The translations under genes and the position numbers were made by a program. The notes beneath the pieces are model-generated. The model saw nothing but the letters and a program-made list of their open reading frames with translations. It was not told the origin of the DNA and searched no databases. A DNA stretch of 64,000 nt from Clostridiales bacterium (lineage in GTDB: Bacteria > Bacillota > Clostridia > Saccharofermentanales > Saccharofermentanaceae), in contig JAFWDK010000010.1 of the NCBI GenBank assembly GCA_017513085.1, forward strand, positions 96,001 through 160,000, in the 5' to 3' direction. Positions 1 through 34,173 of the stretch are shown here, one piece after another. Each line of letters begins with the position of its first letter. Position 1 is the first letter of the stretch.

Positions 1-2
1 TG

Positions 3-116
3 GATAATGATTTCTCCGTTTGCAAGGTTGCGTCGATTGCAGACATTGATATGACAGCGGACTTTTTCTTCATTGGCAAAACAGATGAATAATTGTCTTT
101 GGTTTGTAATACTGGC
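3..116 (+). pseudogene. Remnant of a small ACT-domain (amino-acid-binding) protein with an in-frame stop
   Basis: Frame from nt 3 reads DNDFSVCKVASIADIDMTADFFFIGKTDE*LSLVCNT, resembling clostridial ACT-domain proteins (FSVCKV...FFFIGKTDEEISLVC). TAA at 90-92 sits where GAA is expected and similarity is lost after about nt 115. The 5' end lies outside the window. Confidence 0.6.
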
Positions 117-171
117 CGCAGAAGGATATACGATAGTATAAAATCATATTAGAACTAAAAAGGAGAGCAAT

Positions 172-705
172 ATGTCGATCGGACTTAAGAGCGGAACCGT
201 TATATTAGAGCCCCATCAGGAAGAGTGGGATATGGAAGGTAAACGTATCTGTGCGACCATTAAAGAGATTCTTGGCAAGGATGTAGTCGATGCACAGCAT
301 GTAGGAAGTACTTCCATTAAGAGTATATGTGCCAAACCGATCATAGATATAGCTGTTGCCGTAAGAGATTTTCAGGATATAAGAAAACACGACGATGAAC
401 TTGCTGAGCATGGGATCATCTATCGCAAAGAAGACTATCCGGGTCAACATCTGTACCGTATCGGAGATCTGGATAACGGAATAGTTACTCACTATATACA
501 TGTTGTATTAGCGGATTCTTTTCAATGGCAAAACTATATCAACTTCAGAGACTATCTAAATTCTCACACCGAAGAGGCCGAAGCTTATGAGAAGTGTAAG
601 CAGGATCTGTGGTCGAGATATCCTAATGATCGTGAAGCCTATGTTGAGGGCAAGAGTGAGCTCGTAACGGAACTACTTGCTAAAGCTTCTGATTGGCAAG
701 ACTAA
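172..705 (+). CDS. GrpB/UPF0157 family nucleotidyltransferase-like protein
   Basis: HVGSTSI..ICAKPIIDIAV and FRDYL...Y..GK motifs; AGGAG RBS. Confidence 0.9.
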   Translation: MSIGLKSGTVILEPHQEEWDMEGKRICATIKEILGKDVVDAQHVGSTSIKSICAKPIIDIAVAVRDFQDIRKHDDELAEHGIIYRKEDYPGQHLYRIGDLDNGIVTHYIHVVLADSFQWQNYINFRDYLNSHTEEAEAYEKCKQDLWSRYPNDREAYVEGKSELVTELLAKASDWQD

Positions 706-716
706 AGGAGAAACAA

Positions 717-1223
717 ATGAACTATATCAATAAGGGAAAACGGGATGTAATCATCATACCAACGTTTAGTAATGTGCAAATTCTGGAAACGATCAGAAAA
801 AAGTACGATGAACTTTACGGTATTGTGCCACCACATATTACCCTTGCTTTCCCATTCGATAGTGATATCTCAAATGATGATTTAGAACGTAAATTGTCCG
901 AAATTGCAAGTGATTTCAAACCGTTCAAAATAAGATTGAAAGGAATTTCTTTTGGTTTTGATACCCGAGTGAATACATATTACATTTTCCTGGATTTTAT
1001 TCAAGGAGAAGAGATAATTACTGCGATTCACAAAAGGATTTATTGTGATATTCTTCATAAAGAGCTGCCTTTTGAGTATAAACCCCATATTACATTAGGA
1101 TGCACAAAGGAAAAGATCGATCTTAGCTTAGATGAAGAATTTGAAACTACAGTTGATCAGTTATCTGTTGAGTTAATTGGTGAAAATGAAGAATCAAACA
1201 TAATCATCCGGATTAGCTTATAA
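717..1223 (+). CDS. 2'-5' RNA ligase family / 2H phosphoesterase
   Basis: Two HxT motifs (PPHITLAFPF, YKPHITLG); ATG at 717 follows an AAGGAG RBS. Confidence 0.88.
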   Translation: MNYINKGKRDVIIIPTFSNVQILETIRKKYDELYGIVPPHITLAFPFDSDISNDDLERKLSEIASDFKPFKIRLKGISFGFDTRVNTYYIFLDFIQGEEIITAIHKRIYCDILHKELPFEYKPHITLGCTKEKIDLSLDEEFETTVDQLSVELIGENEESNIIIRISL

Positions 1224-1265
1224 TGTAGTGGAGCAAAGAAATAAATACTCAGGACAGGGATCTAT

Positions 1266-2039
1266 ATGGAAGACTCTATAATCACAAAGAACAAACAGTA
1301 TTGGGATGAACACGCTGATCTTTGGTTTGGAACGACGGCTCTGCCCCGATACGGAGTTAAGTTTGTCACGGAGGATGATCTGCATTTCTTCTCGGATGTG
1401 GCCGGCAAGAAGGCTCTTGAAATATGCTGCGGAAGCGGACATTCACTAAAATACCTTTGGAATAAAGGCGCCGGCGAGCTCTGGGGGCTTGATCTGTCAC
1501 AAAAGCAGCTGGACAATGCCAGGCAGTTCTTAAACGGGAGTGGCTGTGATCCAAAGCTTATTTGTGCACCTATGGAGGAAGATTCAGGCATTCCCCGAGA
1601 TTATTTTGACTACGTATATTCCATCTATGGTATCGGCTGGACGACTGACCTTGCCGGCACATTTAAGAAGATTGCCTCGTATCTGAAAAAGGACGGCATC
1701 TTCATATTCAGCTGGGGACATCCGCTTCATTATTGCGTGGCAAAATCATATGCAACCGGCGAAGATGAAGTGCAGGATGGAGAACTCGTATTCTCAAGGA
1801 GTTATTTCGATGAGTCATATTTTGATATGCCGGTTCACGACACCACTGTGACATTTGCGAACAGGAAGATATCTACTTATGTCAATGCATTGTATGAAGC
1901 CGGTTTTATCATCGAGAAGATGGTCGAGCAAACTGATGAACAGACACTGGCTGACAGTAAGGACAACAGCCCGAAAGCGCAGAAAGCGAGGATGATCCCT
2001 CTATCAATGTGCTTTAAGTGCAGAAAAATAGGCGGATAA
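1266..2039 (+). CDS. Class I SAM-dependent methyltransferase
   Basis: LEICCGSG motif I, GLDLS, FDYVYS, LKKDGIFIFS. Confidence 0.9.
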   Translation: MEDSIITKNKQYWDEHADLWFGTTALPRYGVKFVTEDDLHFFSDVAGKKALEICCGSGHSLKYLWNKGAGELWGLDLSQKQLDNARQFLNGSGCDPKLICAPMEEDSGIPRDYFDYVYSIYGIGWTTDLAGTFKKIASYLKKDGIFIFSWGHPLHYCVAKSYATGEDEVQDGELVFSRSYFDESYFDMPVHDTTVTFANRKISTYVNALYEAGFIIEKMVEQTDEQTLADSKDNSPKAQKARMIPLSMCFKCRKIGG

Positions 2040-2066
2040 TCATCCATTTTAAATCTGGAGAAAAAC

Positions 2067-2633
2067 ATGAACGCGAGAGAATACCTTGAAATATTACATG
2101 TAGCTGAAAGACTCAAAGATACGCCCAGACACTGTACGACCACCAACGGAAGAACGGAGAGTGTGGCGGAACACAGCTGGAGAGTATCACTCATGGCTTC
2201 ACTCCTGAGACACGAATTCCCTGATCTTGATATGGATAAGGTCGTTAGTATGTGTCTTATTCACGATCTCGGAGAATGTTTTACCGGTGACATACCTGCT
2301 TTTGTTAAGACGGATGCTGACAGAAAAACAGAAGATACATTATTAGAACAATGGGTGAAGTCGCTTACGGAAGAGATATCCTCCGATCTCTCTGCTCTAT
2401 ACAAGGAAATGGATGCGCAGAAGACGGCGGAAGCGAAATTGTATAAGGCCTTAGACAAACTTGAAGCCTTGATCCAGCATAATGAGTCTCCTTTGAGCAC
2501 ATGGGCGGAGAACGAGTACGAGCTGAATAAGACGTATGCTTTCGAAACGGTCTCATTCTCGAAATGGCTTACAGCACTTCGAGAAGAGATCCTTAAGGAT
2601 ACGATTGAAAAAATCGAAAAGGAGAGTGAATAA
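2067..2633 (+). CDS. HD-domain hydrolase (YfbR/HD_3-like)
   Basis: ESVAEHSW...CLIHDLGE...GDIP...LDKLE. Confidence 0.9.
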   Translation: MNAREYLEILHVAERLKDTPRHCTTTNGRTESVAEHSWRVSLMASLLRHEFPDLDMDKVVSMCLIHDLGECFTGDIPAFVKTDADRKTEDTLLEQWVKSLTEEISSDLSALYKEMDAQKTAEAKLYKALDKLEALIQHNESPLSTWAENEYELNKTYAFETVSFSKWLTALREEILKDTIEKIEKESE

Positions 2634-3146
2634 ATGGAAAACATTGTTTTTAGAGAAGCAACAATGGATGATGCAGAGGAAATGATTTCCTATCTGAACA
2701 TCGTCGGGAGAGAATCCGGAAATCTCATGCATGGGGCAGACGGTTTTAAAGCACCGGTCGAAGCGGTGAAACGGCGCATCCAGGCTTCCCATGACGCAGA
2801 TAACAGCATAATTCTGATTGCCCTTTCGGATGGGAAGATCATAGGCCGGGCTGAACTGGCCGGCTATCCGGCGGCAAAATTGCATCATAATGCCACGTTT
2901 TCCATTTCTGTCCGAAAAGACTACTGGAATATGAAAATCGGCACAAGGCTGATGACAGAAATCATTGAATGTGCGAAAAAGATGAATCTTCGGAATATTG
3001 ATCTGGAAGTAGTAGTTGATAATAAGGCAGCCATTGCGCTTTACCATAAAATGGGATTTACCGATATAGGAGTATACAAGAACTACTGGTATGCGAATAA
3101 TACCTATAGCGATGCCATTGTCATGCAGAAATGTTTGAACGACTAA
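2634..3146 (+). CDS. GNAT family N-acetyltransferase
   Basis: SVRKDYWNMKIG motif A; NKAAIALYHKMGF. Confidence 0.9.
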   Translation: MENIVFREATMDDAEEMISYLNIVGRESGNLMHGADGFKAPVEAVKRRIQASHDADNSIILIALSDGKIIGRAELAGYPAAKLHHNATFSISVRKDYWNMKIGTRLMTEIIECAKKMNLRNIDLEVVVDNKAAIALYHKMGFTDIGVYKNYWYANNTYSDAIVMQKCLND

Positions 3147-3170
3147 TATAGAAGCGATTGAGGATCCTTT

Positions 3171-4529
3171 TTGATGGATATTGAAGGAAGAAAAGAATTC
3201 AAAAAGCAGCTTATGAGTCTGTCAGTGCCTTTGGCGCTACAGAATCTTCTTACGGCTCTTGTCGGCGCATCGGATGCACTTATGCTAGGACGTCTGACGC
3301 AGGATGCGATCGCAGCCGTATCGCTTGCCAATCAGATTGCTTTTGTTATGTCTTTATTCTATAGCGTTGCTATTGTTGCAGCGAGTGTTCTGATATCCCA
3401 ATATTGGGGCAAGAAGGACTATCTTAATGCAAAAAGATTTCTGGGAATGGCAATTCGATATGCCCTGGGCATCGGAATCATCTTCACGGTAGGTGCTTAT
3501 ATCTTTGCAGAACAACTTATAGGGATATTGACTAATGAGCAGGAGCTAATCCGGATCGGAGCGGATTACCTGAGGATTGTGTGCTTCTCTTATGTTTTTA
3601 CCTCTGTATTGCGGTGTTTTCTGATGATTATGAAGATTTCCGGGCATGTGAAGTTGAGCGTCTGGATCTCTGTTGTTACCGTAACAGTGGACATGGCAGC
3701 CGATTTCTTCCTGATCTATGGATTTGGAAAGATCCCTGCTTTGGGTGCAAACGGCTCTGCTTATTCAACGATCGTTGTGGAAATGATTGCTCTGATCTGG
3801 TGTGTTATTTGGGCGCAGAGAAATGAGAATATACGTCTTGGAAAAGATTCCCTGCTTTGTTTTTCCAGGACATATGAGCGAAAACTTTGGAAGATCATCC
3901 CCGGAATGATGTTGTCCTCACTGGCTTGGGGATTCAGCATCCCAATGCACTCGTTTTTTCTGGGACATCTCGGGACAGATGCCACGGCAGCAGCCGCTGT
4001 AGTCACAGTCGCTCAGCAACTGATACAGGGACTTACTCATGGCTTCTCTACCGGTATCAGTATCATGATCGGGAAACTCCTTGGACAGAATAAATTGGAT
4101 AAGGCGAAAGAATATGGTGCTCTTAGTTGGAAAGTGTCATTGATTTCAGGAATGATAAATGTATTGCTGATTTGCATTGTTGGACCGCTTGTTTATGTAT
4201 TCTATGTACTTGAAGCCCTGGCCAAGCAATATCTCATACAAATGCTTATTTTCCTGGCTTTCTATATGGTGGCGTATGCATACAATACCATTATTACCTG
4301 TGGAGTCTTTCCAGCGGGAGGAGATTCGATTTATGACGGGATAAGTGTTTTGATTGCCACCTGGTGCTTTGCGATTCCACTGGCTCTTATCGCCTGCTTT
4401 GTATTACATCTTCCGGTCATAGTCGTTTATGTAATCATGTGCCTGGATGAGATAGTGAAGGTGCCTTTTATCAGGTGGAGATATAATAAATATATATGGC
4501 TAAAGAATCTTACAAAAGAGACTGCTTAA
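3171..4529 (+). CDS. MATE family efflux transporter
   Basis: About 12 TM segments; DALMLGRL, SQYWGK, LGANGSA MATE repeats. Confidence 0.92.
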   Translation: MMDIEGRKEFKKQLMSLSVPLALQNLLTALVGASDALMLGRLTQDAIAAVSLANQIAFVMSLFYSVAIVAASVLISQYWGKKDYLNAKRFLGMAIRYALGIGIIFTVGAYIFAEQLIGILTNEQELIRIGADYLRIVCFSYVFTSVLRCFLMIMKISGHVKLSVWISVVTVTVDMAADFFLIYGFGKIPALGANGSAYSTIVVEMIALIWCVIWAQRNENIRLGKDSLLCFSRTYERKLWKIIPGMMLSSLAWGFSIPMHSFFLGHLGTDATAAAAVVTVAQQLIQGLTHGFSTGISIMIGKLLGQNKLDKAKEYGALSWKVSLISGMINVLLICIVGPLVYVFYVLEALAKQYLIQMLIFLAFYMVAYAYNTIITCGVFPAGGDSIYDGISVLIATWCFAIPLALIACFVLHLPVIVVYVIMCLDEIVKVPFIRWRYNKYIWLKNLTKETA

Positions 4530-4576
4530 GGAAAAACAGACATGATCAGAACATAAGAATTTAAAGAGGTAATGAT

Positions 4577-5164
4577 ATGAAAGTGTTAATTGTATATTGC
4601 CATCCTTCAAAAGATAGTTTTACGAATGAGGTATATAAATCTTTTGAACGAGGATTAAGAGATGCAGGTCATGAGATTTTAATATCCGATTTGTATGATA
4701 TGGATTTTAAAACGGACATGAGTGAAGAAGAATATTTACGAGAAACCTATTACAAAGCGGATGGAATAAAATCAAAAGATGTCTTGATCGAACAGGAAAA
4801 AATACAGAACAGTGATGCAATTGTGTTTATATATCCTGTATTTTGGACGGAAGCACCTGCGAAGCTTGTGGGTTGGTTTGACCGGGTTTGGACAACAGGA
4901 TTTGCTTATAGACCAGATCCTGCGATGAAGGTTCTTGAAAAAGCATTATTTATTGTTTGCGCAGGAAAAACCATGCAATCTCTCATTGAAACAGGGGAGA
5001 AGAGTGCTATGGAAACAGTAATGTTGGGAGATAGAATTCGTAATAGGGCAAAAGAGAAAGAAATGGTAATTTTTGATAATATATCGCATTGGAATGAAGA
5101 AGCACGAAATGAGAATATGCCACGACATCTTTCCAAGGCATATGATATGGGTGTAAATTTCTAG
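4577..5164 (+). CDS. NAD(P)H-dependent oxidoreductase, flavodoxin-like fold
   Basis: VYCHPSKDSF, YPVFWTEAPAKLVGWFDRVW. Confidence 0.9.
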   Translation: MKVLIVYCHPSKDSFTNEVYKSFERGLRDAGHEILISDLYDMDFKTDMSEEEYLRETYYKADGIKSKDVLIEQEKIQNSDAIVFIYPVFWTEAPAKLVGWFDRVWTTGFAYRPDPAMKVLEKALFIVCAGKTMQSLIETGEKSAMETVMLGDRIRNRAKEKEMVIFDNISHWNEEARNENMPRHLSKAYDMGVNF

Positions 5165-5193
5165 AACGTAAGAACGGAGTTGAAGAGAAGTCT

Positions 5194-5715
5194 ATGATCA
5201 TACTTATAACAGGTGCATCACATACCGGAAAAACTGTTTTGGCGCAGAGATTGCTTGAAAAATATAAATACCCGTATCTTTCCATAGATCATTTGAAAAT
5301 GGGACTTATTCGCAGTGGAAACACTGATCTTACGCCTGATGACGATGCCGAGCTTACGGAATATTTGTGGCCGATCGTCAGAGAAATCATCAAGACAGCC
5401 ATAGAGAATGAGCAGAACCTTATTGTTGAGGGATGTTATGTTCCTTTTGATTGGAGAAACAGTTTTGATGAGCAGTATCTTCTGTCGATAAGATTCATCT
5501 GTCTTGCTATGTCAGATGAATATATGATTTCGCATTTTGGAGATATAAAAGCGCATGGCTCAGACATTGAAAACAGGCTCGATGATTCTGATTGTACAGT
5601 TGAACAAGTGATGAAAGACAACCGCCAGATCATTGCCGGTTACAAATCCAGTGGCGAAAAGATTACTTTGATTACAGACAACTATGAGGATTCGATAAGA
5701 GGCATATTGAATTAA
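5194..5715 (+). CDS. P-loop nucleotide kinase-like protein
   Basis: ITGASHTGKT Walker A; LIVEG. Confidence 0.85.
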   Translation: MIILITGASHTGKTVLAQRLLEKYKYPYLSIDHLKMGLIRSGNTDLTPDDDAELTEYLWPIVREIIKTAIENEQNLIVEGCYVPFDWRNSFDEQYLLSIRFICLAMSDEYMISHFGDIKAHGSDIENRLDDSDCTVEQVMKDNRQIIAGYKSSGEKITLITDNYEDSIRGILN

Positions 5716-5730
5716 CAAATTCAAGTTTGT
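5715..5730. repeat. 16-bp pseudo-palindrome ACAAA-TTCAAG-TTTGT (copy 1)
   Basis: Overlaps the stop codon of the kinase gene; 15/16 identical to 7549-7564. Confidence 0.7.
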
Positions 5731-5767
5731 CATGAGGTTGCATTTTGCGGATTTGTGAAAGGTTTTT

Positions 5768-6307
5768 ATGGATATTAGAATTGAACCTATATTGATTGAA
5801 CAAAAATCTGTATTCATTCAGATGATGGAGTTATACAATTATGATTTTTCAGAGTTTTCCGATGATGATATAAATGAATATGGATACTTTGGTTATTCGC
5901 GTATTGATGATTATTGGAATGAGGAAGGAAGATATCCTTACTTTATTAGAGTTGACGGGAAACTTGCAGGATTAGTCTTGGTCAGGTCCTGCAGTGAACA
6001 TAATGATTTATCCAATCCTCACAATATAGCTGAATTCTTCGTGATGAAAAAATACCGGCACAAAGGAGTTGGGAAGATGGTTGCTATGAAGATTTTCGAT
6101 ATGTTTCCCGGTGGATGGGAAATATCACAATGGCAAAATAACCTGCCTGCTCAAACCTTCTGGAAGATAGTCATTAACGAATATACTAATGGTAAGTTTG
6201 ATACATTTACTGCAATAGAGAAAGGCGAGGTTGGTTTTACATTTGATAATTCACTTAGCCGTGGTGATGAGGGAAAAGATGAAATACCAATACAAAGAAA
6301 TGCCTGA
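5768..6307 (+). CDS. GNAT family acetyltransferase
   Basis: IAEFFVMKKYRHKGVG; NLPAQTFW. Confidence 0.9.
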   Translation: MDIRIEPILIEQKSVFIQMMELYNYDFSEFSDDDINEYGYFGYSRIDDYWNEEGRYPYFIRVDGKLAGLVLVRSCSEHNDLSNPHNIAEFFVMKKYRHKGVGKMVAMKIFDMFPGGWEISQWQNNLPAQTFWKIVINEYTNGKFDTFTAIEKGEVGFTFDNSLSRGDEGKDEIPIQRNA

Positions 6308-6348
6308 ATCTATGATGGTCTGTTTTTGAGTTTGGATTATGAATGATT

Positions 6349-6418
6349 TCTCCCAATTATATTGAAAAATCTCCCAAAAGGATGTATGATTTGGGAGAAA
6401 AGTATGTTGGTTGGGAGA
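6349..6418 (+). promoter_or_regulatory. SigA promoter of the Fic gene embedded in a four-site operator (TCTCCCAA x2, TTGGGAGA x2)
   Basis: -35 TTGAAA 6362-6367, 17-nt spacer, -10 TATGAT 6385-6390; 8-mers at 6349, 6370, 6391 and 6411. Confidence 0.75.
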
Positions 6419-6433
6419 AAGGATAGTTGCCGG

Positions 6434-7513
6434 ATGAGACAGTTTGATTATTCTAAATTGGCTGATAGAACTTGGGATAATGAAATAGTATCTTATATTT
6501 CAAAGATTCACGAGTACAAAGGAAAACAGGAATTGTTCCTTCGTCAGAAGCCGGTTGAACTTACACGTCTTATCGAGGTGGCTAAAGCTCAAAGTACTGA
6601 GGCTTCAAACCGTATCGAAGGAATAGTAACCACCAGCTCAAGACTAAAACAGTTAATGAACGATAAAACGACACCTAAGAATAGAGATGAGGAAGAAATC
6701 CTTGGGTATCGAAACGTACTTAATCTGGTGCATGATAATTACGATGCAATCCCTGTAAGACGAAATTATATCCTTCAGATGCATAAGGAATTACTAAAGT
6801 ATACGAATTTCTCTTACGGCGGTCAGTTTAAGACAACTCCCAATGAAATCGATATGGTTACGGAGGCCGGTGAGAAGATCGTGCTATTCAGACCTTTAGC
6901 ACCATATGAGACTCCCGATGCTATTGATCAAATTTGTGAGCAGTATCAGAAAGAGTTGGATAGAGGTGTGGTTGATGAGTTAATACTAATTCCATGCTTC
7001 CTTCTCGATTTCCTGTGTATTCACCCATTTAATGATGGAAACGGAAGAATGAGTCGACTAATTACTCTGCTTCTTCTAAATAGATGTGGATACCTGGTTG
7101 GACAATACATAAGTATCGAGAAAGCAATTGCTGATACTAAGGAAGCCTATTATGATTCGTTGCAGAGAGCTGATCAAAATTGGCATGAAGGACAAAACGA
7201 TCCCAAACCGTTTATCAAATACATGCTGGGTGTAATCCTCGCATGCTATCGCGAGTTTGAGCGAAGAGTCACTATTGCTCACCCTGAAGGAACTAGAAGT
7301 ACTTCGTACGACATAGTTAAGGCTTGTGTTACAGAACGAATCGGAAAGTTTACTAAATTGGAAGTGCTGACATTATGTCCGAGTTTGGGGAGCTCTTCCG
7401 TAGAATCTGCCTTGAAAAAACTGGTTGATGAAGGATATCTTGTTCGTATTGGATCTGGGCGAAAGACGCAATATGTAAAAGCTGATGCTATCAAACATAA
7501 GCGGAAGCTGTAA
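6434..7513 (+). CDS. Fic family protein with C-terminal winged HTH
   Basis: HPFNDGNGRMSR Fic motif; inhibitory-helix-like ASNRIEG; C-terminal wHTH. Start placed at MRQFDY after the AAAGGA RBS. Confidence 0.92.
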   Translation: MRQFDYSKLADRTWDNEIVSYISKIHEYKGKQELFLRQKPVELTRLIEVAKAQSTEASNRIEGIVTTSSRLKQLMNDKTTPKNRDEEEILGYRNVLNLVHDNYDAIPVRRNYILQMHKELLKYTNFSYGGQFKTTPNEIDMVTEAGEKIVLFRPLAPYETPDAIDQICEQYQKELDRGVVDELILIPCFLLDFLCIHPFNDGNGRMSRLITLLLLNRCGYLVGQYISIEKAIADTKEAYYDSLQRADQNWHEGQNDPKPFIKYMLGVILACYREFERRVTIAHPEGTRSTSYDIVKACVTERIGKFTKLEVLTLCPSLGSSSVESALKKLVDEGYLVRIGSGRKTQYVKADAIKHKRKL

Positions 7514-7548
7514 GGCGCGTTCGATGGAATATGAGGGTATCCTGTGAC

Positions 7549-7564
7549 ACAAATTCAAGTTTAT
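7549..7564. repeat. 16-bp pseudo-palindrome ACAAA-TTCAAG-TTTAT (copy 2)
   Basis: In the intergenic region downstream of fic; matches 5715-5730 and the inverted copy at 34098-34113. Confidence 0.7.
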
Positions 7565-7580
7565 AGGGTTGATGCCATAG

Positions 7581-7697
7581 TCGAGAAGAAAAGATACCGC
7601 AGACCACAGTGGATCCGAGTTCTTTGAAATGAACTGCAAAGAAACGTCGCGGATAGCAAAGGATTTTACGGTGGAGGTTATCAGAAGCGAGCAATAA
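7581..7697 (+). pseudogene. Possible 3' remnant of a lost gene (MTA/SAH nucleosidase C-terminus-like)
   Basis: Startless frame SRRKDTADHSGSEFFEMNCKETSRIAKDFTVEVIRSEQ* ends just before the next RBS; family resemblance is from memory only. Confidence 0.35.
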
Positions 7698-7710
7698 AAG
7701 GAGTTGGCAA

Positions 7711-8310
7711 ATGAGCCAGATTGTTGAAAAAATGCGGCAGGAGATAATCGATCGAAGTGCCCGATTTGAAGAACTGACAAAAGGTACGAAGGATGAGTAC
7801 AACATATATCGGGAGCATATCCAGTATGTTTATAAGTATGTTGTAATGCTCTCAAAGGACAAGAATGTCGATGGGGAAGTGTTGGAATTAGCTGCCCTTT
7901 TACATGATATTTCCATGACCGATATGTCACTGGACCGAAGCCGGCACAATGAATACGGTGCGGGAATTGCGGAACAGTTGTTACGGGAGAGTAATTACCC
8001 GGAAGACAAAACGCAGCTTGTCAAAAGATGTATTCTGAATCACAGTAAAGGAAGACAGCAATACCGGAGCACGGAGGAAGAGCAGATCCTTGTCGATGCT
8101 GACGGATTATCTCATTTTGATGTTGTTAAGACGCTTTATTCCTTGCCAAGTAAAGTCATGGGATTAAACGAAGAGGACTCGGTGCGGTTTGTGCAGGATA
8201 AACTGACCGGAGACTATAATGAATTAAGTGATGATCTCAAATACTTGGTAAAAGAAAAATATGACAGAATAATGGCCTCCAAATGCGAAGATGATATAAA
8301 AGCACTGTGA
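7711..8310 (+). CDS. HD-domain protein
   Basis: H...AALLHDI...RHNEYGA...ILNH...LVDAD. Confidence 0.88.
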   Translation: MSQIVEKMRQEIIDRSARFEELTKGTKDEYNIYREHIQYVYKYVVMLSKDKNVDGEVLELAALLHDISMTDMSLDRSRHNEYGAGIAEQLLRESNYPEDKTQLVKRCILNHSKGRQQYRSTEEEQILVDADGLSHFDVVKTLYSLPSKVMGLNEEDSVRFVQDKLTGDYNELSDDLKYLVKEKYDRIMASKCEDDIKAL

Positions 8311-8415
8311 TATTCGGTGTGAAGGAAAGTTATCTCTTGAATTTATCGTTCCAAACATTAGTTGACTATCTGGTGTAAGTGTGCGAAAATGCCTGAAAAC
8401 AACGAGGTGTTTAGT

Positions 8416-8877
8416 GTGATTAAGGTGCTTTTTATCTGCCACGGCAATATATGTCGTTCGACAATGGCTCAGTCTATGTTCCAGAATATGGTGAACAAGT
8501 TGGGGCTTTCAGATAGATTTTTTATTGATTCGGCTGCGACGAGCAGGGAGGAGATAGGGAATACGCCTCACTATGGAACGGTCAGTAAGCTTCGTTCTGT
8601 CGGGATTCCTCTAGTACCACATCGTGCACGCCAGATGACTCAAAATGACTATGAGAACTTTGATTATCTTATCGGGATGGATTCCTATAACGTCTCTAAT
8701 ATGACGCGTATTGCCGGAGGTGATCCAAATCATAAGATATTTCAAATGCTTGAGTTTGCTGGATCACGCAGAAGCATTGCCGATCCATGGTACACAGATA
8801 ATTTCGATGAAACTTACGATGACTTGAAAGAAGGGTTGGAAAGTTTTATGGAATATCTTATTTCCGAAGGCATCTAA
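8416..8877 (+). CDS. Low molecular weight protein-tyrosine phosphatase
   Basis: FICHGNICRS and IADPWY motifs; GTG start after a GAGGTG RBS. Confidence 0.93.
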   Translation: MIKVLFICHGNICRSTMAQSMFQNMVNKLGLSDRFFIDSAATSREEIGNTPHYGTVSKLRSVGIPLVPHRARQMTQNDYENFDYLIGMDSYNVSNMTRIAGGDPNHKIFQMLEFAGSRRSIADPWYTDNFDETYDDLKEGLESFMEYLISEGI

Positions 8878-9039
8878 GATTGTGTGGTTACGATAGCCGT
8901 ATCTTTTTGCATGTTGTGAAGATTTCATAAATTATCTGGAACTTGCGGTATTTGTTTGATGAAAAAATAGAGTCCGGAATGCGTACTTTTTCTGTTTTTT
9001 TTCTTATAATGCTCTTAGACAGCAATCAGGGGATGACAT

Positions 9040-10401
9040 ATGGGAAATAAGAATGTTACGGATATGACGGTTGGAAATCCGACCAGACATATTTTGAAGT
9101 TTACTTTGCCGCTTCTGATCGGCAATCTTTTTCAGCAACTTTATAATATGGTCGACTCTATTGTAGTAGGTCGTTATGTCAGTCCGCACGCATTGGCGGC
9201 AGTTGGCGCATGCGGTTCTCTGAATTTCCTTTTCTTTTCTTTGAGTTCCGGTCTTGCTGTCGGTATTGGCGTAATCGCTTCACAATATTTCGGTGCAAAC
9301 GATGAGAAGCAACTTAAGAAGACAATAGCTAACTCGATCTATGTTCTTGCTTCATCAGCACTCGTCGTCACGCTGATCGGTTTCTTCTTAGCAGGACCGA
9401 TCCTTAGGCTTTTACAGACTCCGGATGCATACATAGCTGATTCAATCGACTATTTTCGGGTGACCTGCCTTGGAATAGTCGGCGTTGCATTTTATAACGG
9501 CGTAGCCGCTTTGCTCCGGGCAGTCGGCGACTCTAAAACACCATTGTATTTCTTGATCTTAAGTAGTGTTATAAACGTGAGCCTTGACCTAGTCTTTGTA
9601 CTTTGTTTCGGCCTTGGTGTAGTCGGGGTAGCGTTAGCAACTATCATTGCTCAAGCTGTGTCGGCAATCGTTTCCATTATTTTTGCATATAACAAAATCA
9701 CATATTTTAAGCTTGGTAAGAAGGACTTGCACCCGGACTTTTCAATGATCCGTGACTCTTTCAGGCTTGGCGCGCCGGTGGCTATTCAGAATTCTATGAT
9801 AGCTGTTTCTTGTATTTCTCTTCAGGCAGTTGTCAATGGCTTTGGTCCTGATGTGGCATCTGCTTATACTATATGTGGTCGTATTGAACAGTTGGTTCAA
9901 CAGCCATATGGCTCGCTTGGCATGGCGCTTACTTCCTATTCAGGTCAGAATATCGGGGCGAAGAAACAGGAACGTGTGGTGGAAGGCTTCCGCAAATCTA
10001 CTTTGATCGTTCTTGCTTTCAGCCTGATCATGCTTCCGCTGTTTTTCTTTGGAGGAAAGTTTATTTGCGGAATTTTTATTAAGGAAGAAGAGGCGGCGGA
10101 GGTCATCCTGTCCCTTGGCGCACGAGCACTGAAGATCACGAGTCCTTTTTACTTCGCATTAGGAATGATCTACGTTCCCAGAGCAGTTCTGAATGGTTGT
10201 GGCGATACAGGATTTGCTATGATCAATGGTCTTACGGAAGTGGTCTGCCGAATTCTTTTCTCCAATATCCTGACAAGGATTCCTATCCTGGGTTATTGGG
10301 GCATATGGGTCACGACAGGTCTTACATGGGGCTTTACGGCAATCGTATGCGTGTGGAGATATAAAGGCGGGAAGTGGAAGTATAAAGCGCTTGAACGCTA
10401 G
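9040..10401 (+). CDS. MATE family efflux transporter
   Basis: GNLFQQLYNMVDSIVVG, GDSKTPL, LGVVGVALAT. Confidence 0.95.
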   Translation: MGNKNVTDMTVGNPTRHILKFTLPLLIGNLFQQLYNMVDSIVVGRYVSPHALAAVGACGSLNFLFFSLSSGLAVGIGVIASQYFGANDEKQLKKTIANSIYVLASSALVVTLIGFFLAGPILRLLQTPDAYIADSIDYFRVTCLGIVGVAFYNGVAALLRAVGDSKTPLYFLILSSVINVSLDLVFVLCFGLGVVGVALATIIAQAVSAIVSIIFAYNKITYFKLGKKDLHPDFSMIRDSFRLGAPVAIQNSMIAVSCISLQAVVNGFGPDVASAYTICGRIEQLVQQPYGSLGMALTSYSGQNIGAKKQERVVEGFRKSTLIVLAFSLIMLPLFFFGGKFICGIFIKEEEAAEVILSLGARALKITSPFYFALGMIYVPRAVLNGCGDTGFAMINGLTEVVCRILFSNILTRIPILGYWGIWVTTGLTWGFTAIVCVWRYKGGKWKYKALER

Positions 10402-10488
10402 ATAAGCGTATTGAGTCATTTGTTGACATCATTATCCTTTGACTTTTTATGGTATAATAGATAAATCTATCTTTGAAAGTAGGAGGAA

Positions 10489-11829
10489 ATGAGCATGGAT
10501 GTTGATAAGATTTCGAAATACTCTTCTTGCCAGCGGCCGCTCCTTGTAAAGAACGACACGATCGAAGATGCGCTTTTTGAGAAATATGGCGTAAATCGCG
10601 GATTGCGCGACATCAATGGAAAAGGTGTACTAACCGGACTTACCAGAATTTCGAAGATCGTTTCCTTTACATCCGGACCGGATGGCAAGCAGGTGCCGTG
10701 TCCGGGAGAGCTTTGGTATCGTGGATACAATATCAAAACTCTGATTAAAGAATTGGGTGAGCGCGAATATGGATTTGAGAGGACGGCTTACCTGCTTTTG
10801 TTTGGTGAAAAACCGACGGAAAGCCAATTGCTTGAGTTTCAGGACGTGTTAGATGAATGTCGTTGCCTTCCGACAAACTTTACCCGTGATGTTATCATGA
10901 AAGCGCCAAGTCACGACATTATGAATTCGATTACGAGAAGTGTGCTGACGCTTGCTTCCTATGATGACGAATCTACTACTTCATCCGTAGAGAACAGTTT
11001 GAGACAGTGTATTCAGCTTATTGCGCAGTATCCGATGCTTGCTGTTTACAGTTATCATGCATATAACCATTACGATAATGATGAGAGTATGTATATCCAT
11101 CGCCCGAGAAGAGGAAAATCTACTGCAGAAAACTTCCTTCTCATGCTTCGCCCTGATCAGAAGTATACCGATCTTGAGGCTAAGGTTCTTGATGTGGCTT
11201 TGATGCTTCATATGGAACATGGCGGCGGTAACAATTCCACGTTTACGACTCGTGTAGTTACGTCGTCAGGTTCAGACACTTATTCGGCCATGGCGGCGGC
11301 CATGTCTTCGCTCAAAGGACCGAAGCACGGCGGTGCGAATATTAAGGTTGTTCAGATGATGGACGATATTCGTGAACATATATCGGATTGGGAAGACCGG
11401 GCAGCTATTAAAGAGTATCTCATGAAAATCTTAAGCAAGCAGGCATTTGATAAGAGCGGTCTGATCTATGGTATGGGACACGCCGTCTATTCGATGAGTG
11501 ATCCGAGAGAAGAAGTGCTGAACTCTTATGTCGAGGCTTTAGCGAAAGAAAAGGATATGGAAAGAGATTATATCCTTTATAAGAATGTAGAAGAGCTGGC
11601 GCCGGAAGCTATTGCCGAAACGAGAAAGATATTTAAGGGTGTAAGTCCTAATGTAGACTTTTACAGTGGTCTGGTCTATAAGATCCTTGGTATTCCGGAG
11701 GAACTTTATACACCGTTGTTTGCGACGGCTCGTATTGTCGGATGGAGTGCACATCGTATAGAGGAACTTATCGGAATGAATAAGATCATTCGTCCTGCAT
11801 ACAAAAGTGTCATGACAGAAATTGAATAA
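10489..11829 (+). CDS. gltA: Citrate synthase (Si-type)
   Basis: HMEHGGGNNST, GPKHGGAN, GMGHAVY, PNVDFY. Confidence 0.95.
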   Translation: MSMDVDKISKYSSCQRPLLVKNDTIEDALFEKYGVNRGLRDINGKGVLTGLTRISKIVSFTSGPDGKQVPCPGELWYRGYNIKTLIKELGEREYGFERTAYLLLFGEKPTESQLLEFQDVLDECRCLPTNFTRDVIMKAPSHDIMNSITRSVLTLASYDDESTTSSVENSLRQCIQLIAQYPMLAVYSYHAYNHYDNDESMYIHRPRRGKSTAENFLLMLRPDQKYTDLEAKVLDVALMLHMEHGGGNNSTFTTRVVTSSGSDTYSAMAAAMSSLKGPKHGGANIKVVQMMDDIREHISDWEDRAAIKEYLMKILSKQAFDKSGLIYGMGHAVYSMSDPREEVLNSYVEALAKEKDMERDYILYKNVEELAPEAIAETRKIFKGVSPNVDFYSGLVYKILGIPEELYTPLFATARIVGWSAHRIEELIGMNKIIRPAYKSVMTEIE

Positions 11830-11860
11830 AATACCGAAAAAGTTCAGTATTATCACCAAA

Positions 11861-11893
11861 AAAGGTCGGTTGAATTGAAATCAGCCGGCCTTT
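11861..11893 (+). terminator. Rho-independent terminator after citrate synthase
   Basis: AAAGGTCGGTTGA-loop-TCAGCCGGCCTTT hairpin. Confidence 0.7.
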
Positions 11894-11968
11894 CTGATAT
11901 TATTTGTGCATAGTTTTTTCTGTTTTATGGGTTTGTAAGTTTTTTTTATACTTCGGGGGGATGATCCT

Positions 11969-13645
11969 ATGTCAGGAAGACGTTGGTTTGCTCTGTTGAG
12001 CACTTTTGTCGTGTTTTCATTTTTCGTGCAGTTTGCACGGCTTCCGTTACTGCAGATAAAAACAGTTTCTGCTGATACTGCAGATTATGTACAGGTTCTG
12101 GATGTTGCAGGAACGTCTGTTACCATTGAAAACCAGAAATTCAATAATAGTGATTTCGTTTTTGAACTGAAACTTCAAGGTTGTAAAGATTTCAATGAAG
12201 CGAATATAACCGTTAAGTTTAATGAGGAAAACTGCATTCCGTCTATAAATGCCGGGCGTCATGGAGTGTTCTATGTTGATCCGTATAAAGTTGAACCGAG
12301 ACATACCAGTGCAAGTTCGGTAAGTGGGAATACGGTTTCTATTACAACTAAGGATAGAGGAGTTCTCGATGGACATGGAAAGATCCGTGTGCGTATGATC
12401 CTTAATACAGAAGCCTATCTTTCCAGTGCAGCTGTCGTTTCGGTTTCTCCGGAGCCGACGCCGTCACCTACCCCGGTACCAACCAATACGCCTACGCCAA
12501 CGCCTACCAATACACCGACGCCTACAAAGGCACCGACCAATACACCGACACCTACAAAGGCACCGACAAATACGCCTACTCCTACGAAGAAACCTACGAA
12601 TACGCCTACGCCAACGAAGAAGCCCACGAATACGCCTACTCCGACTAAGCGTCCGACCAATACACCAACACCTACAAAGGCACCGACAAATACACCTACG
12701 CCTACGAAGAAACCTACGAATACGCCTACGCCAACGAAGAAGCCTACGAATACGCCTACTCCGACTAAGCGTCCGACCAATACACCAACACCTACGAAGG
12801 TGCCGACAAACACGCCGATTCCAACTAAGAAGCCGACAAATACGCCGATTCCGACTGGAAAACCGACGAATATGCCGTTGCCTACCCAAGCTCCGACAAA
12901 TACACCTATACCGACTCAATCTCCAACGAATACTCCAATCCCTACCGCGACCCCGTTGCCGACAGTTGTGGCTCCGGGACCGATCGGTGATCCGACGGCA
13001 ACTCCTGAACCGACTGTAACTCCGGAACCAACTTCGACTCCATCTCCGGTACCGGAAGCGACGCCGACTGAAGCTCCGGAAACATCGGAAGAATCTTCTG
13101 CTGAAGAGACCGACGCTCCGACTGATGAAACGGCAAGCTCTGAAACAGATCCGGTAACAGAGAGTTCAGATGGTGCGGAAGTTGTACTCGGTGTTTCCAA
13201 AGAATCCGGAGATAACAATGATCCTTCCGAACCAGGTGGTGGCAAAGAAACGGAAGTTTTCATTCCTACGGAGCGGCCTGAGCTTTCCACCAATGCTTCA
13301 ACTGCTTATAAGCAGAAGAGCCAGGCGGGCTTCTTCATCTGGTTTGCCATCCTGTTTGTTCTTGTGATTGCAATCTATTTGCGTTATAACCACCTTGCTA
13401 AGAAAGACATGGCTTTTGTGGATATTTGCAAGAACTTTATTCCGATTCCTGGTCGTATGAATAAAGGAGCGTCCACAAATGTTTCCGGTTCGACGATGTC
13501 GTCTGCCGCTAATGGTAATATCGCTCCGTCAAGATCGGTGGCCAGCGTCGGACAAAGCTATCGCCCGATCAAGTCAACGGTTAGAAAAGAACCCGGCGCA
13601 TCGCAGGACCTTTCCGGAAAGGGTCCGGATCTGAACGAGAAGTAA
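11969..13645 (+). CDS. Secreted, membrane-anchored Pro/Thr-rich surface protein (paralog 1)
   Basis: Signal peptide (VSA cleavage), beta-rich head, ([10 protein letters not shown])n stalk, acidic linker, TM helix, conserved tail. Confidence 0.85.
12476..12950 (+). repeat. Coding 30-bp tandem repeat ([10 protein letters not shown]) with a 120-bp higher-order duplication
   Basis: 12541-12660 and 12661-12780 differ at only 4 positions. Confidence 0.95.
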
Positions 13646-13702
13646 GAGCGATCCGTGCTTTTTGTCTTTGCCCGGTAAGCATATTTTGAGAAGACTCGGA
13701 AG

Positions 13703-13734
13703 AGCCGGCTGATTTGTCATCGGCCGGCTTTTTT
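13703..13734 (+). terminator. Rho-independent terminator
   Basis: AGCCGGCTGAT-loop-ATCGGCCGGCT followed by a T run. Confidence 0.85.
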
Positions 13735-13779
13735 GCTATGATTGTGGCGAGGGGATAAAATATTTGTGAAGTAAGGGGG

Positions 13780-14826
13780 ATGTGTATGCATAAAAGTCGC
13801 TGGATGAGACTTCTGAGTCTGATTCTTGCTTTATTTTTATGTTCGTGCTGTCTTTCAGTAATCAGGTCCCAAACCGTTCGTGCAGTTTCTAATGCAGAAG
13901 GAATCGTCGAAATCGACGGAAAGGGCAAATATAACCAGGCCAAGATCCGCGTGGTCATTCAACAATATGATGAATCTTCGATTTATCGAGGAAGAATCTA
14001 TGATCAAGGGGCCTGGTCGGAAACACCGAACCTTCTTTTCTCGACTACGTTAAAAAACAGTACGTTGACGATAATCGTTCAAAGTGCGGATTATTCTCCG
14101 ATTGAAGTGTCCAGGATCCATATATGGGTCTCGGTGGAGACTGTAGCAAAGCTTCAACTGTTGTCGGATGTTTCTTACGAGAAACTTTCTCCGCCACCGG
14201 GTACGACAAAAGCACCGACCTCGACACCGATGCCGACGCCTTCTCCTACGCCGTCTCCTGATGAGGCTACTCCGACGCCGCTTCCTACCGATACTCCAAC
14301 GCCGACGCCGTTGCCCACCAATACTCCGACGCCGCTTCCTACAAATACTCCGACTCCGACACCAACTCCTACGCCAAGTGCAGACGCCGGGCTTATTGTC
14401 GATGAATCCGGAGATTTGCCCGGAGATCCGTCCGAAGATGACCCGGGTGGGGCTTCAGAGGTTTTGATTCCGACACAAAGACCGGATAGTACTTCCGGAA
14501 AATCAACCTATAAAGCAGAAAGCCAGACGAGTTTCTTTGCCTGGTTCGCGATTATCTTTGTGCTGGCGATAGTGATTTTCGTACGCTATAGTTCACTGTC
14601 CAAAAAAGACATGGGATTTGTAGAGATCTGTAAGAACTTTATACCTTTGCCCGGTGCGGCCAAGAGAAGAGAAGCTGCAGAGAAAGAACGTATGACGGCT
14701 CCGGTTATATCTGAACCCGCACATAAAACAGCCAGCGTGGCGCAGGTATACCGTCCTATCAAGTCAACGGTGAGAAAGACTGATACGCCGAAGGATCCGG
14801 GCACTGGTTCTGCCGATCCGCAGTGA
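13780..14826 (+). CDS. Secreted, membrane-anchored Pro/Thr-rich surface protein (paralog 2)
   Basis: Signal peptide (VRA), PT stalk, [36 protein letters not shown]. Confidence 0.85.
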
Positions 14827-14983
14827 TTTTTCTTTGGTCACAAAATATATCATGAAAAGTGCTTGAAAATACAACGTTTTGTAACATTGGAAATAGCCGG
14901 TTGAATTGAAATCAATAGGCTATTCTGATATGATAAACGATAAGGGTAATTCTAATTTAGTTATGATAATTAGGAGCGTAAGT

Positions 14984-16255
14984 ATGAAGGTGACACGAAA
15001 AAGTAAGTTTCTCAGTATTTTTGTCAGTATACTGATCTGTTTGTTTGGTGTGTTCGGCACGATGATCCCGCATATTCTGGCCGAATCCACAAGCTGCTCT
15101 GTAGATATTGACGGTGGTGGAGATAAGAATGAAGCCTACATTGTTTTAAAGGTAGCAGGAGATGGAGCGAAGGTCAATTCCGCTAAGTCTTCTTGCAGTT
15201 CATCACAGGTAAGTGTCAGTACTTCCGTAGAATACGATACTATCAATGTTCATATTAAATCTAAAGACGGTTCAGCAATCAAACCTGCTTCGGTACTTGT
15301 TACTGCTGATGTGTCTGACGGTGCATCGTTGTATCTGGATAAAATCATTTATAACAAGTTTAATCCGAATACACCAACGCCGGCTCCAACCAATACGCCG
15401 ACTCCCGTACCGACGAATACACCTACACCATTACCAACCAATACACCGACTCCTGTACCGACAAATACTCCGAGTCCCACGCCTAAGCCGACAAAAGCTC
15501 CTACACCTACACCTGTTGGTGGAGTAGTAACATCTACACCGACTCCGGCTCCGACGAATACACCTACACCGAAGCCGACAGATACGCCGACGCCTGTGCC
15601 GACAGATACGCCGACGCCGACTGCGGAACCGACGGAAACTTCCGAGAGCAGTTCTGAATCCAGTTCGAGTGAAGCGACATCAGAGTCACAATCTGAGTCC
15701 ACAAGCGAATCTTCCGCAACGGAGAGCGCTTCCGGTGCTGGCGTTGTAGAACCTTCTGATTCCTCTGCGCCGTCAGACAGCAGCAGTGCTGAGACGTCAT
15801 CGTCTGATGTGTCAGAGACGACAGAATCCACAAAGACTTCGACGAAGTTCGTTACACCGACAATGTCTCTTTTGCCGACCACGGTGACAACCAAGAAGGA
15901 GAATCCTTACACATTCTTTATCTGGTTTGCTATTATTTTCGTACTGATCATTGTGATATACATGCGTTACAATGCTCTTTCCAAGAAGCGTATGGACTTT
16001 GTAGAGATCTGCAAGAACTTTATTCCTGTTCCGGACTTCATCAAGGATATCTTCAAGAAAAAGAAAGAAGAAGATACAGAGACGAAGCAGGATACCGTTG
16101 TTAAGAACGGATATCTGCAGAAGCCTTCCGTAGGAGACGCGCAGGCTTTCCGTCCTGCGAAGGTCGCCAGAAAGATCGAGAAGAAAAAAGAAGATGAAAA
16201 GATCGATATTGAGGATGACCTGGAAAGCGATATCGACGATCTGGACAGTCTTTGA
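14984..16255 (+). CDS. Secreted, membrane-anchored Pro/Thr/Ser-rich surface protein (paralog 3)
   Basis: ATG at 14984 after a GGAG RBS; signal peptide, PT stalk, Ser/Glu linker, [36 protein letters not shown]. Confidence 0.85.
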
Positions 16256-34101: not shown

Positions 34102-34113
34102 AGTTGAATTTGT
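34098..34113. repeat. Inverted copy of the 16-bp pseudo-palindrome (reverse complement ACAAATTCAACTTTAT)
   Basis: 15/16 identical to 7549-7564; overlaps the stop codon of the transglutaminase gene. Confidence 0.55.
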
Positions 34114-34129
34114 ATTACGAATTTGTATA

Positions 34130-34173
34130 TTTTAAACTTTTTTCTAGACGAAAAAAGTCTAAAAAACTATAAT
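34130..34173 (+). promoter_or_regulatory. SigA promoter with an inverted repeat flanking the -35
   Basis: TAGACG-17-TATAAT; TTTTAAACTTTTTT / AAAAAAGTCTAAAA. Confidence 0.6.

Follow-up and report, generated by a model that had tools for sequence, protein, structure and literature searches.

A conserved two-hairpin element behind the stop codons of accessory genes in rumen and gut Clostridia, a candidate junction site for gene modules

Introduction

Integrons are the textbook device for single-gene capture, and in their attC sites the R''(RYYYAAC)/R'(GTTRRRY) and L''/L' boxes form one imperfect hairpin of 57-141 nt. Other short sites are organized differently. The pdif sites of Acinetobacter plasmids, which are acted on by Xer, are duplex sites of 28 bp, in which a 6-bp spacer separates two inverted arms of 11 bp, and the modules between them alternate in orientation. 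The hairpins of repetitive extragenic palindromes (REP) and their BIME assemblies, like those of IS200/IS605 elements, are recognized in folded form on a single strand; REPs number tens to hundreds per genome, where they also flank a RAYT gene. To our knowledge, the inter-cistronic hairpins of Firmicutes, including those of the STAB-SD type, lack letter-for-letter conservation across phyla and are not known at synteny breaks. Here, we describe an intergenic element from a 64,000-nt stretch of a Clostridiales bacterium (GenBank assembly GCA_017513085.1, contig JAFWDK010000010.1, positions 96,001 to 160,000; hereafter the window, which is C5:96001-160000 of genome G000, 3.06 Mb in 36 contigs). 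The element belongs to a family that lies directly behind stop codons, has the potential to fold on the sense strand, re-assorts its flanks at its first hairpin (box 1), and flanks inserted genes as direct copies. Tentatively, and with a probability that we put slightly short of even, it may be a junction site at which accessory-gene modules insert and are exchanged.

A cassette-like joint in rumen Clostridia would matter because Cury et al. (2016; PMC4889954) found no complete integrons among Firmicutes. The element would make the shuffling of single accessory genes in Gram-positive gut bacteria directly testable. If it is an RNA signal, it would still be an undescribed and strikingly conserved motif, and a marker of gene modules moving horizontally in the rumen.

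Results

An element family behind accessory genes

The preliminary description of the window had reported three copies of a 16-bp pseudo-palindrome, all at gene junctions. Two of these, copy 1 and copy 2 (Table 1), proved real: they are the only places in the entire 3.06-Mb genome that match the 16-mer with at most one mismatch, and both are recognized by a sequence-only model (R1) built from an alignment (A1) of 12 junction copies of relatives in the genus and its sister genus, at 5715-5743 with E 1.1e-4 and at 7549-7577 with E 6.9e-7. Of 142 genomes that represent the bacterial family, 62 gave a match to the model at E≤0.1, and 26 still did so at E<0.001 (34 places); each carrier has 1-5. 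In the consensus, a stop codon is followed by (A)CAA, ATTCMAGTTTGTCGGGATGA, and then a second hairpin (e.g. ..CGATAGAGCGTTATCTC..), ~45-55 nt in total; divided into its parts, it reads (A)CAA-ATTCMAGTTTGT-CGGGATGA before the second hairpin. The 16-mers of the window are box 1, the first stem-loop of this intergenic element, placed in sense orientation directly past the stop codon of a small accessory gene. The first A of copy 1 is the last base of the TAA stop codon of the ORF (open reading frame) at 5194-5715. Copy 1 matches the usual continuation CGGGATGA at 3 of 7 positions and has no second hairpin; it is a truncated form of the junction element. Copy 2 extends over 7549..7579 (+), comprising box 1 and the continuation AGGGTTGATGCCATA, which together correspond to the left part of a fuller element.

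Beyond the bacterial family, the 20-mer AAATTCMAGTTTGTCGGGAT occurs exactly at 72 loci of a collection of species-representative genomes. Most of these are rumen or gut Clostridia (Butyrivibrio, Pseudobutyrivibrio, Eubacterium xylanophilum, isolates of Ruminococcaceae and Lachnospiraceae, and many metagenome-assembled genomes, MAGs); further carriers are Selenomonas sp., Treponema zioleckii, an Erysipelotrichaceae MAG, and Lactimicrobium. About 17 far-flung matches of the 20-mer, which appeared to be coding coincidences or lay in atypical contexts, were excluded from the flank analysis described below. Cultured genomes hold 1-4 copies of the element each. Rfam 15 gave no match at the element, neither in window 1-12000 (E≤10) nor at 10 loci with the full element (E≤1). 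A full-text literature search retrieved no paper on the motif, on the radical SAM mobile pair, or on Butyrivibrio cassettes or repeats, and a search on integron-like systems in Clostridia returned integron papers only. The junction element is real and apparently undescribed. The 20-mer is also held by four IMG/VR contigs, three of them (L198, L199, and L201) with typical elements; two of these contigs share a GNAT gene with three bacterial MAG loci.

This recurrence bears on the explanation that a 14-mer happened to repeat in AT-rich intergenic DNA. By our estimate (about 0.5), it is not unusual for a 64-kb window to contain an exact 14-nt match within 2 kb; moreover, the third string is at chance level, and the generic form of the motif is unenriched (see below). 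Recurrence in 26 of the 142 genomes (E<0.001) and at 72 public loci, in the same position relative to genes, refutes chance for copies 1 and 2, and the explanation as a whole retains next to no probability.

The third of the reported copies, an inverted partial one, did not hold. It matches 10 of 11 bases of the reverse complement, is unrecognized by R1, and coincides with none of the 25 breakpoint clusters described below; as exact 11-mer sub-words of the motif are present in 34% of 300 simulated windows, the string is at chance level. The proposed module of gene remnant and HD gene, which this copy was to close on its right, is likewise unsupported. A look-alike with one mismatch lies on the minus strand at 34098-34113, where it overlaps a stop codon; it is likewise unrecognized by R1 and is followed by GAATTTGTAT twice as a direct repeat (look-alike region 34098-34130). 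The generic pattern AYAAA-N6-TTTRT, which had been put forward for a genome-wide scan, was not enriched: the genome has 20 sites, and five Markov-1 simulated genomes have 16-20 each (mean 17.4); the 3 sites in the window against 0.44 expected are a post hoc figure.

Position and sense-strand fold

A co-oriented ORF of at least 60 codons ends no more than 30 nt upstream of the element in 51 of the 81 members (within 0-10 nt in 42), compared with 130 of 1620 random places (8%) and 11 of 81 on the opposite strand. In many instances, the 5′ arm of the element includes the stop codon. The placement of the motif at gene boundaries is correct for copies 1 and 2 and generalizes to the family.

In 40 aligned members, 82.9% of the cells are paired in a two-hairpin fold, a share that falls to 37-51% on sliding the partners. 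G·U or U·G pairs are frequent: in helix 1, pairs 9-24 and 10-23 are of this kind in 10 and 11 of the 40 members (the outermost pair is standard in 11 of 40), and in helix 2, the corresponding figures are 13, 31, and 26 of 40. Since such pairing is available only on the sense strand, it points to a fold of RNA or of top-strand single-stranded DNA rather than to a palindrome in duplex form. Among the aligned members, neither the loop nor the 3′ arm varies, whereas the 5′ arm does, and the loop and the single-stranded bases are invariant even across phyla.

What is conserved is not the layout given in the preliminary description, with inverted arms around an asymmetric 6-bp spacer. That description had proposed a double-stranded tyrosine-recombinase core of the dif/pdif/att type that delimits pdif-like modules. 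In favor of such a core, the 16-mer is nearly palindromic and bounds modules, and the genome contains host Xer-type recombinases in the form of sub-threshold tyrosine recombinase matches. Against this, the arms measure 5-7 bp, the left arm is the poorly conserved one, and the supposed spacer is invariant; the pairing needs G·U, leaving the palindrome imperfect as duplex DNA; the copies are direct rather than alternating; and the conserved unit reaches ~35 nt further to the right. Together with the lack of enrichment of the generic pattern and the chance nature of the third copy, which the second module would have required, this makes a duplex core site quite improbable.

The 3′ part of the element occurs in several subtypes. 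In one of them, a box 2 resembling box 1 (AAATCGNNNTTTGNGGAGG) lies directly 5′ of a start codon and contains the ribosome-binding site. The leader in front of the GNAT start codon in the window (Table 1) is similar to this box, and the same box precedes a different gene in the related genome G016 (locus G016-a). Elements are also found at the ends of operons, where terminators follow (L167, L181, and L133). A scan for consensus sigma-70 promoters (-35/-10 with a spacing of 16-18 nt) gave no site at the element, either in L119 or in the window; by eye, TTGTCG-17 nt-TAAAAT was seen in one subtype of the element only.

An element that is always in sense orientation and tightly behind stop codons, whose helices rely on G·U pairs existing only on the transcript strand, whose related box 2 overlaps the Shine-Dalgarno region before start codons, and which stands at operon ends with terminators could be primarily a cis-acting RNA, that is, an inter-cistronic hairpin pair for processing, stability, or translation. 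It would then travel with the modules, and the joint pattern described below would be a by-product of rare recombination in a short shared patch. The low copy number and the failure to find a linked recombinase agree with this explanation. However, the invariance of the loop and of the single-stranded bases across phyla goes beyond what a stabilizing hairpin needs, no Rfam family matches, and 80 left and 86 right partners in 94 instances are much re-assortment for ~24 nt of homology. Moreover, insertions between two direct cores and truncated joints that end exactly at GTTTGT look like defined cutting. An RNA function as the primary role is possible but, on balance, doubtful. It is compatible with a junction site, as a site that is read on the strand of the transcript could have a part in expression as well as in mobility.

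Exchange of partners at box 1 and insertions between direct copies

The flank analysis comprised 94 distinct 190-nt instances, which fell into 80 left-flank clusters and 86 right-flank clusters. Where a left flank recurred, it had at least two right partners in 9 of 9 cases, and recurrent right flanks had at least two left partners in 4 of 5. At least two different 3′ parts of the element were associated with 7 of the 9 recurrent left flanks, but with only 1 of the 5 recurrent right flanks, which argues for an exchange point at box 1; the 3′ part tends to accompany the downstream side. Among pairs that share the upstream gene, similarity stops 12-22 nt past ATTC in 15 of 18, and 128 pairs share the element alone (about -4 to +30..49). 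Of 68 flanking proteins, 17 are GNATs; APH, glyoxalase, NUDIX, FMN reductase, PNPOx, GrpB, DUF4256, SnoaL, and other DUFs are also represented, a cargo that resembles that of integron cassettes.

The one match among plasmid collections, a finished replicon, provides a case outside of the bacterial family. In pSRC6 of Selenomonas ruminantium TAM6421 (NC_017070.1; L202), a mobilizable MOBQ plasmid, the annotated order is recombinase family protein (resolvase-type), MarR, radical SAM mobile pair A, B, and CAT. Gene B is followed by AACTTCAAGTTTGT, a 1-kb insert (a terminator-like hairpin, box 2, and the CAT gene), AAATTCCCGTTTGT, and CGGGATGAACGTTGGAACATAAAAT, which places the CAT gene between two direct copies of the 14-nt core (L202 3940-5080). 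In T. zioleckii, another Treponema MAG, and three Clostridia loci, gene B (TIGR04470) is followed by one intact element, and at both Treponema loci, the right half of this element is the same as that after the CAT insert in pSRC6. The CAT gene is thus part of an insertion bracketed by direct core copies, the same picture as that of the GNAT and Fic genes in the window.

Several elements can also follow each other. An Oscillospiraceae MAG contig (L160:1990-3200) has three successive gene-element-gene junctions, E. xylanophilum has the order element, two genes, element, and at 8 of 55 loci, a second or third copy lies within 2 kb, always co-oriented. The junctions in L160 are followed by a tandem repeat of ~25 nt (CTCGCACACGATTACCC...). 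Three different left sequences precede a TfoX_N module whose left edge (...CAG|CATAATAAATC) stays the same. A 43-nt repeat behind TfoX_N of L102 was considered as a second joint family and set aside, as it is located at the edge of an insertion-sequence-like region. An FMN-reductase gene carries the element in G167 and G201 and a degenerate box in G151; in G228, it lacks the element and is followed directly by a terminator, which the filled forms do not have.

These flanks allow a further explanation to be weighed, in which a non-autonomous miniature mobile element, similar to REPs or MITEs, would insert itself past stop codons. The element is a discrete unit with both ends defined, as the 128 pairs sharing only about -4 to +30..49 illustrate; nearly every copy has unique flanks; and GT(A/C)G followed by a palindrome resembles the layout of REPs. 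The bacterial family also hosts REP-like repeats, as shown by 80 copies of GTTTTCGATACA in G157. Yet, only 1-5 copies of the element are present per genome, and there is neither a target duplication nor a simple pair of filled and empty sites, the FMN-reductase gene of G228 running into a terminator that the filled forms lack. The association of the same left gene with different 3′ parts and partners, as well as the genes between two copies, would be left unexplained, and the sole Y1 transposase examined has unrelated ends. Self-insertion of a miniature element is therefore regarded as improbable.

In G157, which belongs to the sister genus, the copies of GTTTTCGATACA form ~25 clusters of alternating orientation (e.g. 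L110:9100-9400, L110:12500-12800, and L111:10650-10900), compared with 0-3 copies in four other genomes, and some clusters abut the element precisely at ACAA|ATTC. These REP-like GTATCGAAAAC clusters were set aside as a species-specific repeat family outside of the element.

The copies in the window and the accessory-gene array around them

Breakpoints between the window and six relatives formed 25 clusters between 2057 and 8555. Two of the 25 coincide with copies 1 and 2, where about 0.2 would be expected by chance, and each of the two is supported by two genomes: at copy 1, homology ends at 5730 in G002 and at 5725 in G007, and at copy 2, it starts at 7549 in G016 and at 7551 in G007. In G002, the kinase-like gene and the motif are directly followed by the LMW-PTP gene, without the 2.7 kb that carry GNAT, Fic, the gene remnant, and HD. 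What lies to the right of copy 2 (AGGGTTGATGCCATA...) is preceded by Fic in G000, by the stop codon of a GNAT gene in G007, and by that of a CHAP-like gene in G016. The proposal that GNAT and Fic form a module between copies 1 and 2 is supported by these comparisons, as other DNA follows the kinase gene and motif in G002 and three different left genes meet at copy 2. Of these two genes, G010 has only GNAT; in G007, Fic is accompanied by a truncated GNAT.

Table 1. Features of the window around the two copies of the 16-mer
Feature	Position in the window	Strand	Remarks
P-loop kinase-like gene (AAA_33/AAA_18)	5194..5715	+	Left module of joint 1
Copy 1	5715-5730	+	ACAAATTCAAGTTTGT; box-1 hairpin ACAAAT/TCAA/GTTTGT
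Box-2-like leader	5743..5767	+	TTTTGCGGATTTGTGAAAGG..., immediately 5′ of GNAT start codon
GNAT (5768-6307) and Fic (6362-7513)	5768..7513	+	Segment enclosed by two direct copies
Copy 2	7549-7564	+	ACAAATTCAAGTTTAT; 36 nt past Fic stop (7513)
Gene remnant	7595..7697	+	3′ end of PNP_UDP_1-type nucleosidase gene, body deleted
HD-domain gene	7711..8310	+	Last variable gene of the array; 95% identity to G007
Third string, inverted partial copy	8336-8346	-	CTTGAATTTAT; outside of the element, chance match
Low-molecular-weight phosphotyrosine phosphatase (LMW-PTP) gene	8362..8877	+	First core gene

All genes from 172 to 11829 lie on the plus strand, and their products are small, unrelated enzymes, in the order GrpB, LigT-like, methyltransferase, HD_3, GNAT, MatE, NAD(P)H oxidoreductase, P-loop kinase-like, GNAT, Fic, HD, LMW-phosphatase, MatE, and citrate synthase. 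This array extends through the 20 kb in front of the window, with the exception of three ABC-transporter genes on the minus strand, and there encodes adenosine deaminase, an AAC(3)-like protein, several GNATs, a hexapeptide acetyltransferase, a hydrolase, PNPOx, NUDIX, two APH-like proteins, MerR, a TIR-domain protein, and others; R1 found no match in these 20 kb. Altogether, the co-directional array spans more than 28 kb and holds about 40 small enzyme genes (G000:C5:76001-104400; -20000 to 8400 in window coordinates). The sequencing runs that contain the stretch are recorded as animal gut metagenomes (sheep and bovine).

Compared with other species of the genus, pieces of the array show 82-99% identity, whereas the phosphatase gene and those to its right show ~75%; the drop, from 95-99% to about 75%, occurs within the phosphatase gene at 8427-8555. 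The array is thus a mosaic, exchanged horizontally gene by gene and anchored beside core genes. Presence or absence of the MatE gene, for example, is delimited by breaks at 3137 and about 4552. The nucleosidase gene, of which the window retains the remnant, is intact in G016: window 7593-7733 aligns, with ~630 extra bases in G016. The name PNP_UDP_1 was transferred to the remnant from the Pfam match of a similar gene (L123:1181-1945), not from that of the G016 gene. Conversely, G016 has an internal deletion in the HD gene (window 7734-8226), while the window has one in the nucleosidase gene (7580-7697; L016:3584-4400). Decay of neighboring cassettes is thus independent between species.

Discussion

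A candidate junction site

In the sequence of events that we consider, a module would bring along the part of the element to the right of GTTTGT, a leader, and one gene or a few, closed by a stop codon with a new box 1, and would, once inserted, end up between two direct copies of the 14-nt core. The GNAT and Fic genes of the window would sit in this way between copies 1 and 2, with copy 1 as a truncated joint. Box 1 would be the place of recombination, and the substrate would probably be a folded single strand close to the 3′ foot of hairpin 1. The notion of a non-integron boundary of mobile one- or two-gene modules, already part of the preliminary description, is strengthened by genomes outside of the window and by pSRC6, but recombination at the box itself is something that we infer from comparative sequence. 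Overall, the chance that the element is a junction site where accessory-gene modules insert and exchange appears not quite as good as even.

A number of observations weigh against this proposal. The copy number is low, with 1-5 elements per genome, and covariation is modest (13 cells changed on both sides, a value reached by 6 of 500 shuffles). The sense orientation, the coupling to stop codons, and the position of box 2 over the ribosome-binding site fit an RNA role too. Of the recurrent 3′-part types, 9 of 12 have at least two right partners, which misfits a simple cassette model. Although two breakpoint clusters lie on the copies, as had been anticipated for strain-to-strain breakpoints, the other 23 of the 25 are away from the element, none is on the third string, and several cut into coding sequence; in G010, the kinase gene was lost at an AAGAG microhomology and not at the motif. 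Furthermore, the motif is absent at 9 of the 11 gene junctions of 172-8877, and hence it is not the general mechanism of the gene-by-gene variation of the array. The element is only one of several routes of variation there.

Also to be counted against the proposal are the searches for an enzyme. In five genomes (G000, G157, Lachnospiraceae AC2012, E. xylanophilum, and Butyrivibrio FCS014), no integron integrase IntI (TIGR02249) was above the cut-off of 265 bits (0 of 5); the only matches were generic tyrosine recombinases with no more than 55 bits. The Pfam families of the 68 flanking proteins included one Phage_integrase and none that was consistently linked, and the positions of resolvases in five genomes were not consistently near the element. 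Nor was a Xer site or any further recombinase linked to the element. The TnpA of IS605 was rejected as the enzyme of the element, the ends of the IS605 copy in G000 being unrelated. That copy is an IS605-type unit at G000:C10:114189-114545 (L114) with a Y1 transposase of 137 aa, a TnpB-like ORF, and a GC-rich subterminal hairpin.

Excised or empty forms did not add support either. A metagenome scan for the predicted empty site of GNAT and Fic (kinase end plus core) gave one contig, which was of the filled form. Contigs of four sequencing runs (X3, X4, X6, and X8) on window 1-10500 contained no copy-to-copy joint, a result that is uninformative because short unitigs drop rare forms; the only relevant joint in them, 3137->4554, is that of a variant without MatE. 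Finally, most of the genomes are metagenome bins, and single mosaics could be assembly artefacts. As the same junctions are found in cultured isolates and in a finished plasmid, artefacts of this kind are unlikely as a general explanation.

Comparison with described systems

Judged by analogy, the element would work most like the boundary of an integron cassette. Small, co-oriented accessory genes (GNAT, APH, glyoxalase, DUFs, and CAT) are combined with a structured site past the stop codon, insertions lie between two copies, the hairpin forms on one strand, and the same cassettes occur in distant taxa. It nevertheless fails the integron tests on IntI, which was not found in the five genomes, and on one site per gene, and by eye its architecture seems to be different. 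Unlike in an integron array, the element is present at 2 of the 11 junctions of 172-8877, although consecutive sites do occur on some other contigs, and its variable part goes with the downstream and not with the upstream gene. Unlike in attC, the sequence including the loop is conserved, not the structure alone; by eye, the element has ~50 nt and two adjacent hairpins instead of one long R''-L''/L'-R' stem and seems to lack an RYYYAAC/GTTRRRY pair, its GTT being followed by TGT and not by RRR. Its hosts, moreover, are Firmicutes, a group in which Cury et al. found no complete integrons (PMC4889954).

The remaining systems are each matched in part. As with pdif, short sites bound modules of one or two genes, including resistance genes, with no dedicated recombinase adjacent; the arms of 5-7 bp, the direct copies, the strand-specific pairing, and the longer unit are different. 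Small palindromes behind genes, with GT(A/C)G followed by a hairpin, resemble REP/BIME-RAYT and IS200/IS605 sequences, but 1-5 copies per genome, the lack of a linked RAYT, and the differing ends of the IS605 copy in G000 set the element apart from REPs. The sense orientation, the position between cistrons, and a hairpin followed by a Shine-Dalgarno-like G-run recall STAB-SD-type hairpins, from which the element differs in being conserved letter for letter across phyla and in marking synteny breaks.

A wider possibility, which we regard as rather unlikely though worth stating, is that gut and rumen Firmicutes run a cassette system of their own. It would use a ~50-nt hairpin site past the stop codon, cut at the foot of the first stem in folded single-stranded DNA; single-gene modules, including CAT, would lie between two 14-nt cores and be passed across Clostridia, Negativicutes, and Spirochaetes by a recombinase encoded away from the array.

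Additional repeats in the window

Further to the right, window 11860-16255 contains three ORFs (11969-13645, 13780-14826, and 14906-16255) with Pro/Thr-rich tandem repeats of 24-30 nt, none of which matches a Pfam family. A conserved hairpin-like repeat of 44 nt stands before each of these ORFs (at 11860, 13699, and 14891, respectively).

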